Assembly (NCBI GenBank): GCA_016839555.1
Contig: JAEOUA010000010.1
Location: 128,001 to 192,000, forward strand
From: Promethearchaeota archaeon
Lineage (GTDB): Archaea; Asgardarchaeota; Lokiarchaeia; Sigyniarchaeales; SOKP01
Reading direction: 5' to 3'
DNA length: 64,000 bases
Under the pieces are notes generated by a model. That model was not told the DNA's origin, ran no database searches, and worked only from the letters and a program-made list of their open reading frames with translations. Shown in pieces: positions 9,742-13,472 of the stretch. Position numbers and translations under genes: made by a program. The first letter of the stretch is position 1; every line of letters starts with the position of its first letter.

Positions 9742-10986
9742 TTAATAGTTAAATTGCTTTAATCGATCAACTGTAGTATACAATCGTTTGCCTCCTCTGC
9801 GGAGATAATCCATTGCCTCTTCTATTCCCTCAATAGTCAAATTATACATAGGGATAAGGCTGGAAATTATCCTTCTGGTCCAAGGTTGCCATTCGAATCT
9901 AATAAGTTCTGGATTAAGCCAGACGGTATTATTCTTAAAATGATCTTTAATTTCTCTTAAATAATAGATGCCCGGCATTTCATTTCGATGATAATAGTAT
10001 ATTGATCCATATCGTTCGGTAAGTTCCCATGAGGCCATGGCAGCATCGCCAACTATTACAATTTTGTAATTCTTATCGTATTTTTTAAGAAATTCATCAA
10101 AATCGATGGCTTCTTCGGGATTTCTCTGAGCATTTTCATAAAGAGTTTCATAAATACAATTATGAAAATAGTAATATTTAAATTTCTTCCAATGGGACAT
10201 GTTATTGGCTGCAGAAAAGAGCTTATTTACTAAATGAGCATATGGCGTCATCGAGCCACCCACATCCATTAATAAAAGCAGCTTTACATTATTTTTTCTT
10301 CGCTTTTCAAATACAATTTCAATATCTCCCCCGTTTTTTGCAGTTTTATCAATGGTTTTATCAATATTAAGCTCATCTAACTTACCGATTTCTTCCAATT
10401 TTCGTAGCCGCTTAAGAGCTACTTTAATTTGTCTCGTATCTAATACAATATCCTTGCGATAATCTCGAAATATCCTTTTTTGGGCAATTTGTACTGCCAT
10501 GCGCATTCCTGAGCCCCCACCTAGTCTCATTCCCATCGGATTGCGTCCTGAATGCCCGAATTGGGCTTCACCTCCAGTACCTATCCATTGATTCCCAAAA
10601 TTATGCTCTTCATCTTGTTTTTGCATTAGCTCCTCAAAATGTTGTTGAAGTTCTTCTATGTTAAAATTCATTTGCAAAAATTCTTGTAGTTCTTTTCGAT
10701 ATTGTGGATCAATTTCATCTAAATCTAATGGCTTTTCTAACCAATCCCAGATTTGTTGCTTAATATCATCCGGAAATTTTAATTGGGCATCCTTAAAAAA
10801 ATTCGCAAATGCTATATCATATACATCAAATTGATGCTCATTTTTGCAGAAAATCGAACGAGAAATATAATAAAATTGTATCATATTGCTAATTAAACCT
10901 TTATCGAGCGCTTCCATTAGGGTCATGTATTCTATAAGGCTTACAGGTAAGCGCTCTTTAAGGTAGTAAAAGAATTCAACAAACAA
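9742..10986 (-). CDS. VWA-domain (CoxE-like) protein, MoxR partner
   Basis: MIDAS LLMDVGGSM, WIGTGG, YFHNCIYE, VGDAAM and WLNP motifs. Lies directly downstream of the MoxR gene; TTG start. Confidence 0.9.
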   Translation of the reverse strand: MFVEFFYYLKERLPVSLIEYMTLMEALDKGLISNMIQFYYISRSIFCKNEHQFDVYDIAFANFFKDAQLKFPDDIKQQIWDWLEKPLDLDEIDPQYRKELQEFLQMNFNIEELQQHFEELMQKQDEEHNFGNQWIGTGGEAQFGHSGRNPMGMRLGGGSGMRMAVQIAQKRIFRDYRKDIVLDTRQIKVALKRLRKLEEIGKLDELNIDKTIDKTAKNGGDIEIVFEKRRKNNVKLLLLMDVGGSMTPYAHLVNKLFSAANNMSHWKKFKYYYFHNCIYETLYENAQRNPEEAIDFDEFLKKYDKNYKIVIVGDAAMASWELTERYGSIYYYHRNEMPGIYYLREIKDHFKNNTVWLNPELIRFEWQPWTRRIISSLIPMYNLTIEGIEEAMDYLRRGGKRLYTTVDRLKQFNY

Positions 10987-11064: not shown

Positions 11065-12008
11065 TTATGTTGGAAATTTGAGCTTATCCAAGGCAACCTC
11101 TAAGTCTTTTTCCTTTTTTATTAGGGTGCCTAAAAATGGAAAGCTATTCTTAAATTTCTCTATTGAGATGCCGCTTTTGAGCAATACTCCAATCCAATCT
11201 AATAATTCTGAAGTGGAGGGCATTTTACGTAGATTTGTAATTGCTCTTAGTTGGTAAAATTTCTTAATACATTCATTTAAAAGGTTATCTTTCAAATTAG
11301 GATAATGGATCTTACAGATCTCCCTCATGAACTCTTTATCTGGAAATTCAATGTAATGAAAAACACATCTTCTTAAAAACGCATCGGGTAATTCCTTCTC
11401 ATTATTGGATGTAATTATAACAATAGGTCGATGTTTAGCTTTGAAAAATTCATCTGTTTCCTTTATATAAAATTCCATTACGTCTAATTCCTGAAGCAAA
11501 TCGTTCGGAAATTCTATTTTCCGTAGAATATAGTCAGTTATATTCTATATCGGCTTTATCGATTTCATCGATAAGAAGAACGACTTGCTCCTCAGATACA
11601 AATGCTTGTCCTAACGGTCCGAGCTCGATATAATCATGGATGTTATTTACATCCCTCTCCTCGCTACCAAACCTACTATCGTTTGATCTCCAAGTTATAA
11701 TTTAACTTTGAATTAATCTCTTAATAGTATCATATTGGTAGCAGCCAAAAATTGCTTCACTGGTCGATTTAATGTTCCATATTATCAATCTTTTACCTAT
11801 GGCTTCTGCTATTGCATGTGCAAGGAGAGTTTTTCCCGTTCTGGTAGAAATTAACATATTAAAATCTATTTCCAGGCTCTCCTTTTACGAGCAATGGTCG
11901 AGCTAAGGCTATTGACACATTTACTATGTTTTGTAGCTGCGGATCTGCGATATATTTTATGTTTGCGGTATTTACATTTCCTTCGAATTGATTAAAGGTT
12001 TGACTCAT
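11065..12008 (-). CDS. MoxR-family AAA+ ATPase, 283 aa after removal of three predicted BHB introns; exons complement(join(11065..11517,11549..11682,11713..11838,11870..12008))
   Basis: Manual translation from ATG 12008: MSQTFNQFEG...RPLLVKGEPG^TGKTLLAHAIA...WNIKSTS...YQYDTIKRL^NDSRFG...GPLGQAF...LLIDEIDKAD^IEFPNDLLQELD...ITSNNEKELPDAFLRRC...PSTSELLDW. 944 - 92 = 852 nt = 283 aa + stop, with no other lesions. Confidence 0.9.
11518..11548 (-). other. Predicted 31-nt relaxed BHB intron 3, just after Walker B of moxR
   Basis: mRNA reads GCCG-AU^A-UAGAAUAUA-ACUGAC-UAUAUUCUA-CGGA-AA^A-U. Perfect 9-bp inner stem; helix 3 of 4 pairs; in-frame UGA. Excision gives GCC GAT ATA GAA TTT (ADIEF). Confidence 0.8.
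11683..11712 (-). other. Predicted 30-nt BHB/BHL-type intron 2 of moxR
   Basis: mRNA reads GAUU-AA^U-UCAAAGUUA-AAUUA-UAACUUGGA-GAUC-AA^A. Helix GAUU/GAUC (one G-U); inner stem 8 of 9 pairs; outer ACUAUU/GAUAGU; in-frame UAA. Excision gives AGA TTA AAC GAT (RLND). Confidence 0.8.
11839..11869 (-). other. Predicted 31-nt BHB intron 1, inside the Walker A motif of moxR
   Basis: mRNA reads C-CUGG-AA^A-UAGA...UCUA-CCAG-AA^C-G. Central 4-bp helix CUGG/CCAG with two 3-nt bulges; exon-exon stem AAGGAGAG/CUCUCCUU; in-frame UAA. Excision gives CCT GGA ACG GGA AAA (PGTGK). Confidence 0.85.
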
Positions 12009-12368: not shown

Positions 12369-13472
12369 TTAAGTTGATAGTCCACCATCGTTTATAGTCC
12401 ACTTTTTAGTAGTCTCAAGGTAATTATGGGCATGTTGAGCATCGCTGCTATATTGTACACTGCCTACCCCAAGAGTGACACTTTCTTGCAATGTTGTTAA
12501 ATTTGACCATCCAATGAGCAAGCTATCATAATTCTCAGGTGTTAATGCACTATAGTTGAACATTGCGGTCATATCTGTGACGCTTGACACATTCCAGCTA
12601 CTAATATCCTGGTTAAAAACACCAGCACCAAAGAACATATAGCTCATATCCTCAACTTTTGACACGTTCCAGCTACTAATATCCTGGTTAAAATCATAAG
12701 CACTACCAAACATGCTACTCATGGTTGTCACACTCGATACGTCCCAATTCCCAATATCTTGATTGAACGTATTAGCACCTGTAAACATGCTACTCATGGT
12801 TGTCACACTCGATACGTCCCAATTCCCAATATCTTGATTGAACTTATTAGCATAAAAGAACATAAAGTTCATATCTTCGACATTCGAGACATCCCAGCTA
12901 TTCATGCTTGGTACGGTATCAAGAGTAGAGCAATGCCGAAACGCAAAAGATAAATCAGTTGTTCCTGTTAAATCCAAAATGTCCGTTGCTGTAATATTAA
13001 GATTAGAGCACCCATAAAAGTAGCCACCTGAATTTCCTAATCGTAAAGAACCCCATTGCTTAATTTCAAGCAGTTTATCTTTATCTCCTCCGTAATGAAA
13101 TCTCCAGCCAATAATTTTTCCAGTGATACTAATGGTATATACACCTTCTGAAGCATATGTGTGATTTACTTCAGATTGGTTCCACTTCATGATCGTGGCA
13201 TTAGTCCCATCACCCCAGTAAACAGTAAAATTATATTCTCCAAATTCTTCCAAAGGTAATTGCACTTCATCGGGATTAGTTGTCCCAGATTTTGAAGTAT
13301 TCCATACTGAGATAAATGCGTTTTCTGGTACTTGATCCCCTCCGGGAGGTAATAAGAATAAATTGCCTTCCTCTGCTTCTCGCGGCCAGAAAGCGATTGA
13401 TAACCCAATAGCTACTCCACCCACTATTAACACAGCGATAATTACCACTGCAAGTGTTTTTTTACTAATCAT
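12369..13472 (-). CDS. Membrane-anchored BspA-type/DUF285 repeat surface protein with a PKD-like segment
   Basis: N-terminal hydrophobic anchor; VYWGDG..HTY..GVYTISITG; 25-aa repeats FNQDIGNWDVSSVTTMSSMF. Confidence 0.88.
   Translation of the reverse strand: MISKKTLAVVIIAVLIVGGVAIGLSIAFWPREAEEGNLFLLPPGGDQVPENAFISVWNTSKSGTTNPDEVQLPLEEFGEYNFTVYWGDGTNATIMKWNQSEVNHTYASEGVYTISITGKIIGWRFHYGGDKDKLLEIKQWGSLRLGNSGGYFYGCSNLNITATDILDLTGTTDLSFAFRHCSTLDTVPSMNSWDVSNVEDMNFMFFYANKFNQDIGNWDVSSVTTMSSMFTGANTFNQDIGNWDVSSVTTMSSMFGSAYDFNQDISSWNVSKVEDMSYMFFGAGVFNQDISSWNVSSVTDMTAMFNYSALTPENYDSLLIGWSNLTTLQESVTLGVGSVQYSSDAQHAHNYLETTKKWTINDGGLST
12585..12905. repeat. 75-bp period intragenic tandem repeats encoding DUF285 units
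   Basis: 61 identical nt at 12708-12768 and 12783-12843; ttccagctactaatatcctggttaaaa at 12592 and 12667. Confidence 0.9.

Follow-up and report, generated by a model that had tools for sequence, protein, structure and literature searches.

Archaeal mRNA splicing by the tRNA endonuclease is documented, in the literature that we searched, for cbf5 and for one 5' untranslated region (UTR). Bulge-helix-bulge (BHB) introns interrupt the coding region of the crenarchaeal cbf5 pre-mRNA (Watanabe 2002; Yokobori 2009, PMC2738675), the only coding-region case reported by 2020 (PMC7714728), and a BHB intron in the 5' UTR of the HVO_1309 mRNA of Haloferax volcanii has been confirmed in vivo and in vitro (PMC7714728). 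Asgard archaea possess an (alpha-beta)2 EndA endonuclease with a broad-specificity L1 loop (PMC5829648), and their tRNA introns are abundant, multiple, and non-canonical (PMC11291895; preprint 10.64898/2026.10.13.758758). A further mRNA system, the splicing of XBP1/HAC1 by IRE1 and RtcB, uses an exon "zipper" (PMC4687415). The literature searched held no paper on BHB introns in Asgard mRNA or on exon clamps. Here, we describe a gene for a MoxR-like AAA ATPase that is interrupted by three mini-introns (31, 30, and 31 nt) in the genome of a Promethearchaeota archaeon (G000); it lies in a stretch of 64,000 nt (positions 128,001 to 192,000 of contig JAEOUA010000010.1), hereafter the window. Intron 1 is probably a working BHB intron in the pre-mRNA, cut by EndA and joined by RtcB, with a helix between the flanking exons (the clamp) as part of the substrate; judging from the sequence, we give this reading a probability of roughly 0.7.

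As in cbf5, short tRNA-type introns lie in coding sequence, go together with a hetero-oligomeric endonuclease, and are patchy among relatives. Unlike cbf5, the host is a MoxR ATPase of the Asgard phylum, three introns occupy one gene, and one of them sits in the P-loop; the element would work like a cbf5 intron, outside that group. A long exon clamp tracks intron presence in the MoxR gene. With HVO_1309 the locus shares an mRNA as the (here predicted) substrate of the archaeal splicing endonuclease, but that intron lies in an untranslated leader with no frame to restore, and the enzyme there is homodimeric. Asgard tRNA introns resemble those of the MoxR gene in lineage, enzyme type, many recent lineage-specific gains, the lack of repeat families, and location at motif-capable sites; the tRNA body holds the exon halves together in the former, whereas paired exon codons appear to do so in the mRNA. 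The XBP1/HAC1 system also combines two cuts by a protein endonuclease with RtcB-type ligation, and its zipper keeps the halves together and aids expulsion of the intron; however, its nuclease is unrelated, its substrate is formed by twin stem-loops instead of a BHB, and it is eukaryotic and stress regulated, so the likeness is functional only.

Introns of the MoxR-like gene and their predicted splice registers

The four exons of the gene (12008-11870, 11838-11713, 11682-11549, and 11517-11065) total 852 nt, or 283 codons plus stop, and the spliced product is colinear with uninterrupted orthologs of 282-288 aa. Relatives of the gene are named MoxR family ATPase and match AAA and AAA_5. Intron 1 holds an in-frame UAA and shifts the frame; the open reading frame (ORF) of the unspliced RNA (12008..11859) would yield the 49-aa peptide already stated in an earlier note on this DNA. 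From 11884 to 11822, the minus strand reads AAGGAGAG-C-CUGG-AAA-UAGA-UU-UUAA-UAUG-UUAA-UU-UCUA-CCAG-AAC-G-GGAAAAA-CUCUCCUU. The topology is that of tRNA introns, in which a 4-bp helix joins the end of the exon to the intron's 3' end and each strand is followed on its 3' side by a bulge of 3 nt; two opposite-strand 3-nt bulges 4 bp apart are found in this genome and in G030, a genome of another genus that also carries an intron at this site. The core is closed by the pair C11876-G11837, and the inner helices are formed by UAGA (11868-11865) with UCUA (11848-11845) and by UUAA (11862-11859) with UUAA (11854-11851). The earlier note had located the central helix, the bulges, the inner stems, and the closing pair correctly. 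The coordinates of all features are collected in Table 1.

Table 1. Position of the MoxR-like gene, its introns and exon clamps, the adjacent gene, and the introns of three further genes (window coordinates, or genome:contig coordinates where G000 is given)
Feature	Position	Strand	Evidence or remark
Split gene, MoxR-like AAA ATPase	11065..12008	minus	ORFs, frames, ortholog colinearity, Pfam
Intron 1, 31 nt	11839..11869	minus	Within Walker A codons, GEPG^TGKT
Central helix of intron 1, 5' strand CUGG, exon 1	11872..11875	minus	Invariant in both intron-1 carriers
Central helix of intron 1, 3' strand CCAG, 3' end of intron	11841..11844	minus	Pairs with 11875-11872
Bulge 1, AAA; predicted cut 11870/11869	11869..11871	minus	Register yields conserved product
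Bulge 2, AAC; predicted cut 11839/11838	11838..11840	minus	Register yields conserved product
Inner hairpin: UAGA/UCUA, UU/UU internal loop, UUAA/UUAA, loop UAUG	11845..11868	minus	RNA fold
8-bp clamp, upstream strand AAGGAGAG, Lys-Gly-Glu codons	11877..11884	minus	Sequence, fold
8-bp clamp, downstream strand CUCUCCUU, Thr-Leu-Leu codons	11822..11829	minus	Sequence, fold
Clamp extension, upstream: AUUGC 11895-11891, GU 11888-11887	11887..11895	minus	Broken in L125, L123, L127
Clamp extension, downstream: AC 11819-11818, GCAAU 11815-11811	11811..11819	minus	Pairs with upstream extension
Intron 2, 30 nt, in-frame UAA, between RL and ND	11683..11712	minus	Also in G002, L125, L126
Intron 3, 31 nt, after Walker B, DEIDKAD^IEF	11518..11548	minus	Also in G004, L125-L128
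VWA_CoxE-domain gene, uninterrupted, downstream of MoxR gene	9742..10986	minus	Pfam match
AMP phosphorylase intron, DKHS|T|GGVPGNK (L121)	G000:C12:205678-205708		Pfam continuity across insert
HDAC-family gene intron, DLHTG|D|GN (L122)	G000:C10:447293-447264		Pfam continuity across insert
porB intron	G000:C6:79408-79438		Motif continuity by eye only

Cuts placed behind the second base on either bulge (AA^A and AA^C) give CCU GGA ACG GGA, that is, PGTG, and restore GEPGTGKT at a place that is uninterrupted in about 108 of 115 orthologs, which bears out the earlier note's reading of the insert as an intron. Shuffled copies of intron 1 held a BHB in the protein-restoring register in about 8 of 10,000 cases (0.08%); the rate was 0.06-0.24% for the other canonical introns and 0.2-0.3% for the one-mismatch motif of intron 3. 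The same cut rule works for introns 2 and 3, for a 32-nt intron of genus g11 described below, and for the AMP phosphorylase intron, and it joins open frames at the HDAC-like and porB inserts. The 31-nt insert of G030 has AGC as bulge 2, and the Thr codon common to all orthologs results from no cut other than the canonical one, AG^C. Over the 23 pairs of intron 1 in both carriers, 91% of the cells are paired, versus at most 52% in slid controls; in the inner helix of G030, the same 10 positions are all paired, with two pairs changed on both sides.

Intron 1 runs gapless through contigs of DNA from another sample of the same study and from two studies of marsh metagenomes, one marsh variant differing at 11839 (bulge) and 11857 (loop); an assembly artefact is ruled out, since contigs of three other samples carry the intron. 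A spliceosomal-type GT..AG mini-intron was rejected because no such boundaries restore the frame. In blastn-short searches against this genome, five of its introns found only their own full-length match, with no sign of a repeat family, and the intron sequences of two relatives found no full-length match at all; a miniature repeated (MITE-like) mobile element was rejected, as the introns are single copy in the genome.

The core of intron 2 is formed by GAUU (11718-11715) and GAUC (11688-11685) with the bulges AAU and AAA, and it is enclosed by two exon clamps, UACUAUU (11729-11723) with GAUAGUA (11680-11674) and GCUACCAA (11742-11735) with UUGGUAGC (11670-11663). Its BHB central helix is present in the minimum free energy (MFE) fold, with pair probabilities of 0.82-0.99. 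In this genome and G002, 97% of the intron-2 cells are paired, versus at most 45% in slid controls; four pairs differ in both partners, including one of an exon-exon helix, in which Ile ATT and Asp GAT are replaced by Val GTC and Asp GAC. The exon-2 codons just upstream of intron 2 (11742-11735, 11778-11776, and neighbours) encode unusual amino acids, namely, Gln in place of the Met of most orthologs (L123 has Thr) and Ile and Lys in place of Val and Gln; the Gln codon CAA falls within the 8-bp clamp GCUACCAA/UUGGUAGC. Exon 2 also has Phe where 28 aligned orthologs have Asp and L123 has Glu. The non-synonymous sites near intron 2 may be bent to the RNA structure, or constraint may be relaxed there.

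Intron 3 is a relaxed BHB (GCCG 11554-11551 with CGGA 11523-11520, one G.A mismatch) that is enclosed by a 13-bp exon clamp (11590-11578 with 11506-11494) and accompanied by a local exon hairpin (11574-11567 with 11563-11556). The third base of the Ala codon, GCC or GCA, is matched by CGG or CUG in the intron, indicating covariation, and a 7-nt direct repeat, AUAGAAU, flanks the intron. In three genomes of genus g11, site 3 is occupied by a different, canonical BHB intron of 32 nt. Its carriers are L114, L115, and L117 (G118:C3, G086:C26, and G119:C182), and its site corresponds to window 11549/11517; the central helix is GCAG with CUGU or CUGC, the inner stem has 9 bp, and the 5' exon flank is nearly identical to that of this genome in genes that are otherwise diverged.

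A search of 154 genomes of the order gave the 115 orthologs, of which seven are interrupted, namely, those of this genome (introns 1, 2, and 3), G002 (intron 2), G004 (intron 3), G030 (intron 1), and G118, G086, and G119 (the alternative intron at site 3); intron 1 is missing from 27 of 29 aligned orthologs. Among close relatives in public assemblies, L123 and L129 have no intron, L127 and L128 have intron 3, and L125 and L126 have introns 2 and 3, so that close relatives carry 0, 1, 2, or 3 introns in the gene. Introns 2 and 3 with their flanks are 94-100% identical to those of L125, and the gene overall is 90% identical. The carriers are scattered on the MoxR gene tree; therefore, several gains, losses, or transfers are needed.

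These data bear on whether the inserts are dead sequence in a pseudogene or are skipped by ribosomal bypass as in phage T4 gene 60. Such a view could call on the short product of the unspliced RNA, on the branch of this genome, which is the longest of its clade in the gene tree, on the Phe in exon 2, and on the AUAGAAU repeat, which could provide take-off and landing sites at intron 3. However, the gene is under strong purifying selection, with a non-synonymous divergence (dN) of about 0.10 and a synonymous divergence (dS) saturated versus genus-mates, for which dN/dS is an upper bound only; 83 synonymous and 17 non-synonymous codon differences separate it from intron-less L123. The introns are kept across diverged lineages with compensatory changes, and the exact BHB geometry would have to be a coincidence. 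Intron 1 also lacks matching codons for a bypass (GGA stands before the gap and AGA precedes ACG), and a hop in G030 would give GCG (Ala) instead of the invariant Thr. We regard dead or bypassed inserts as scarcely credible.

Exon clamps and their relation to intron presence

The 8-bp complementarity of the exons around intron 1, which the earlier note had described, indeed consists of eight Watson-Crick pairs, and with its extensions the clamp is longer, comprising 16 exon-exon pairs. Its downstream strand uses CTC, which makes up 6.5% of the Leu codons of this genome. In a first test, the duplex energy of the 36 nt on each side of a site was compared with synonymous resampling under the codon usage of this genome, a null that was calibrated on 250 random ORF positions (mean z of 0.00, standard deviation of 0.95). 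The duplex of this genome ranks first of 29 at site 1 (-24.6 kcal/mol, z of -3.4, p of about 0.005) and first of 30 at site 2 (-19.4 kcal/mol, z of -5.6), where G002 ranks second (-18.3 kcal/mol, z of -3.5); at site 3, G004 ranks first of 30 (-12.6 kcal/mol, z of -2.4).

The second test used 48-nt flanks with the core excluded and 3000 random positions in long ORFs of the genome as controls, which had a mean of -10.3 kcal/mol and a standard deviation of 4.0. Duplexes as strong as that of intron 1 (-28.2 kcal/mol) occurred at 0.1% of the control positions, and the corresponding values were 0.5% for intron 2 (-23.6 kcal/mol) and 0.4% for intron 3 (-23.8 kcal/mol). Introns of three other genes of the genome gave 2.5% (porB, -19.7 kcal/mol), 5.3% (AMP phosphorylase, -17.4 kcal/mol), and 5.9% (HDAC-like, -17.2 kcal/mol). 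For the six introns in four genes, the Fisher combined p value is 2e-7; porB was drawn from a list ranked by exon-duplex energy, so its value depends on the test, and the five p values without it combine to about 1e-6. The AMP phosphorylase and HDAC-like introns were chosen without regard to exon pairing, and the latter is enclosed by a perfect 12-bp exon-exon helix.

The complementarity might be a by-product of conserved amino acids and chance that is irrelevant to splicing, given that 6-7 of the 8 same-register pairs also form in intron-less L005, L007, L022, and L024 and that G030 splices, if at all, with a weaker helix. Against this stand the p value of about 0.005 under resampling that preserves the amino acids, the 0.1% of control positions that equal the intron-1 duplex, the recurrence of the excess at five other introns, and the way in which pairing tracks intron presence at sites 2 and 3. 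Already disfavoured on these grounds, a mere by-product is highly improbable.

Same-register pairing of all eight positions at site 1 is found in this genome only among the 29 orthologs, most of the others having 3-6 of the 8 pairs; the complementarity is thus not equally common in intron-less orthologs, which the earlier note had named as part of what would refute its proposal, although three of them have partial versions with 7 of 8. Among close relatives, the carrier at site 1 (this genome only) has -28.2 kcal/mol and the non-carriers have -14.2 to -22.4. Carriers range from -18.9 to -23.6 and non-carriers from -7.2 to -14.8 kcal/mol at site 2, and from -17.3 to -23.8 and from -6.3 to -12.8 kcal/mol, respectively, at site 3; at both sites, each carrier's duplex is stronger than any non-carrier's. 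The distal helix at site 3 has 7 of 7 pairs in all five carriers, which belong to two genera and hold two different introns, and in 3 of 31 intron-less orthologs; all site-3 carriers have, in addition, the rare codon CCG for Pro and a palindromic Ile-Asp-Glu-Ile-Asp hairpin.

L125, the nearest relative that lacks intron 1, has 90.3% nucleotide identity and 82 differences. Identity to L125 reaches 0.94-1.00 near introns 2 and 3, which both genomes hold, and only 0.72-0.81 around site 1, where 12 of the 82 differences fall within 48 nt, all of them synonymous (binomial p = 0.0017); among them are Leu TTG to CTC, Glu GAA to GAG, Thr ACA to ACG, Pro CCA to CCT, and Leu TTA to TTG. Of the 16 clamp pairs, 11 are retained in L125 and 9-11 in non-carriers overall; the L125 duplex has -15.2 kcal/mol versus -28.2 kcal/mol here. 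The codon pattern is tied to intron presence, which argues that the intron is used, and it suggests that mRNA splicing by a tRNA enzyme shapes codon choice around intron 1. The earlier note's proposal that exon codons are fitted to the splice substrate is accordingly supported by the unique 8/8 pairing, the strongest duplex of 29, the synonymous cluster relative to L125, and the stronger duplexes of carriers at sites 2 and 3.

The intron could be spliced and its clamp nonetheless owe nothing to codon selection after insertion, either because introns settle at permissive sites whose exons already pair or because intron and flanks were imported together by homologous recombination. Permissive sites are favored by the duplexes of intron-less L004 (-16.3 kcal/mol) and L005 (-17.0 kcal/mol, 7 of 8 pairs) at site 1 and by the preference of Asgard tRNA introns for places where splicing is possible (preprint 10.64898/2026.10.13.758758). 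Import fits the drop in identity to L125 around intron 1 only, the mosaic of the site-1 stretch (L129-like 5' and L005-like 3', typical of recombination), and the 36-nt 5' flank of intron 3, nearly identical in carriers of two genera whose introns differ. Yet nearly all of the 12 synonymous differences create a pair where L125 has none, so any donor would already have had adapted flanks, and selection would merely have been moved elsewhere; furthermore, the differences among intron-3 carriers lie at unpaired positions or are pairing neutral, and duplexes are weak at each of the three sites in the nearest relatives without introns. We consider permissive sites or import, as the whole explanation of the clamp, rather unlikely and infer that selection, not co-transfer, made the codon pattern. 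Taken by themselves, the clamp data are compatible with selection after insertion, with co-transfer of intron and flank, or with insertion where exons already paired, and the clamp may have existed before the insertion.

Splicing machinery and the proposed route

Two EndA paralogs are encoded as separate genes, L001 (G000:C3:43408-46638) and L002 (G000:C4:241579-244824), with the subunits in the regions of C3:44908-45138 and C4:243079-243324. The 198-aa paralog, with the catalytic Tyr, His, and Lys, matches the C-terminal unit of a fused two-unit enzyme model; the 208-aa paralog, in which the His is missing, matches the N-terminal unit. RtcB is encoded as well (C6:295945-297252, 564 bits), and the genome therefore holds both the endonuclease and the ligase of EndA-type splicing. 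Judged by sequence, the two paralogs fit the (alpha-beta)2 type, the L1 loop being taken from PMC5829648.

According to the proposed route, the transcript would fold such that the exon CUGG pairs with CCAG at the 3' end of intron 1, flanked by the two 3-nt bulges. A two-subunit EndA of the alpha-beta type would cut after the second base of each bulge, and RtcB would ligate the exons, so that a MoxR ATPase of 283 aa, its Walker A loop intact, would result; introns 2 and 3 would be excised by the same route. The clamp, with its 8 bp and extensions, would close the BHB within a long mRNA. Since the central helix would depart with the intron, the exon-exon stem alone would keep the exon halves together for ligation, and the clamp would presumably do in the mRNA what the tRNA body does in a tRNA. 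The flanking synonymous codons and a few amino-acid choices would then be tied to the presence of the intron.

A number of observations weigh against a working intron with a clamped substrate. On the outer side of bulge 2, a single C-G pair is followed by a 7-nt bulge and then by the 8 bp, which is not a textbook helix-bulge-helix-bulge-helix (hBHBh') motif; the inner flank is a helix of 4+4 bp here and of 10 bp in G030, and (alpha-beta)2 enzymes are known to accept relaxed BHB motifs of this sort (PMC5829648). RNAfold gave -19.5 kcal/mol (z = -2.85) for 11892-11815, and the unconstrained MFE fold keeps the clamp and the inner hairpin and pairs CCUG with CGGG in the core; the fold check called for in the earlier note thus bears out the clamp and the hairpin but does not put the CUGG/CCAG core in the optimum; the enforced BHB conformer lies at +1.3 kcal/mol and makes up about 10-13% of the ensemble. 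Intron-less L005, L007, and L022 have 7 of the 8 clamp pairs, and G030, the other carrier of intron 1, has 6, two of them G-U, with an unremarkable duplex in the 36-nt test (-13.7 kcal/mol, z = -0.5). The clamp follows partly from the amino acids because Lys-Gly-Glu codons are purine rich and Thr-Leu-Leu codons are pyrimidine rich, and the carriers are mutually related, so their counts overstate independence. Cleavage and ligation are themselves predictions from sequence; a search of sequencing runs listed no RNA run containing the locus. Finally, a genome-wide search for strict BHB motifs that merge ORFs gave 3621 candidates versus 3626 in a mirror-topology control, no clear excess. Lower ORF thresholds brought no excess over the control either, and adding the clamp energy did not improve discrimination. 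Strict motifs numbered about 900 per intron length in both topologies, and a small excess was seen among 31-nt candidates with at least 5 inner-helix pairs (10 versus 2 in the control). The signal of this census is swamped by adjacent genes and AT-rich hairpins; nonetheless, it yielded three convincing extra split genes.

Other split genes, gene surroundings, and meaning for Asgard archaea

These three further genes of the genome, for AMP phosphorylase, an HDAC-family protein, and porB, are split by strict BHB inserts of 30-31 nt (Table 1), which makes mRNA introns a genome-wide feature here. The host genome (3.74 Mb in 12 contigs, 29.6% G+C) has its relatives among Promethearchaeum / Loki-type Asgard archaea. 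The order of the ATPase gene followed by the VWA_CoxE-domain gene is also found in L123, L125, and L126; a VWA_CoxE-domain gene is the usual partner of a MoxR-type ATPase. Upstream, at 12369-13472 on the minus strand, lies a gene whose 367-aa product combines a membrane helix at its N-terminus with a weak PKD match and with repeated units of DUF285 (219 bits), which are unexpected in an Asgard archaeon; the DUF285 family is typical of surface proteins of Mycoplasma and Listeria. In the 64-kb window, ARAGORN found no tRNA genes and Rfam no family matches; heavily interrupted tRNA genes may escape standard finders.

The sole record traced to this contig is a 137-aa fragment of exon 4 (window 11065-11499), and close relatives likewise have recorded exon-4 ORFs of 137-144 aa. 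These fragments cluster, at 90% identity, with full-length 283-aa proteins of intron-less relatives, so standard gene calling hides the split gene. Gene callers split or truncate such genes, and Asgard genomes hence need intron-aware annotation; a reliable census of mRNA introns calls for homology-based detection.

A wider proposal, which we put forward tentatively and hold to be more doubtful than the splicing of intron 1 itself, is that mini-introns are gained and lost fast in the protein genes of Loki-type archaea and that an intron and its flanking codons form a co-adapted unit, in which the clamp replaces the tRNA body and which may spread by homologous recombination. Recombinational spread of intron and clamp together would explain the same-site introns across genera, the near-identical flanks, and the peak of divergence at intron 1.

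Asgard archaea are the closest prokaryotic relatives of eukaryotes. Sister strains with two, one, or no introns make the gain and loss of introns in protein genes directly observable in this group. Coding sequence seems to have been recruited as a substitute for the tRNA body, at the cost of rare codons and even of amino-acid replacements; if this is true, RNA structure constrains the synonymous sites around each intron.

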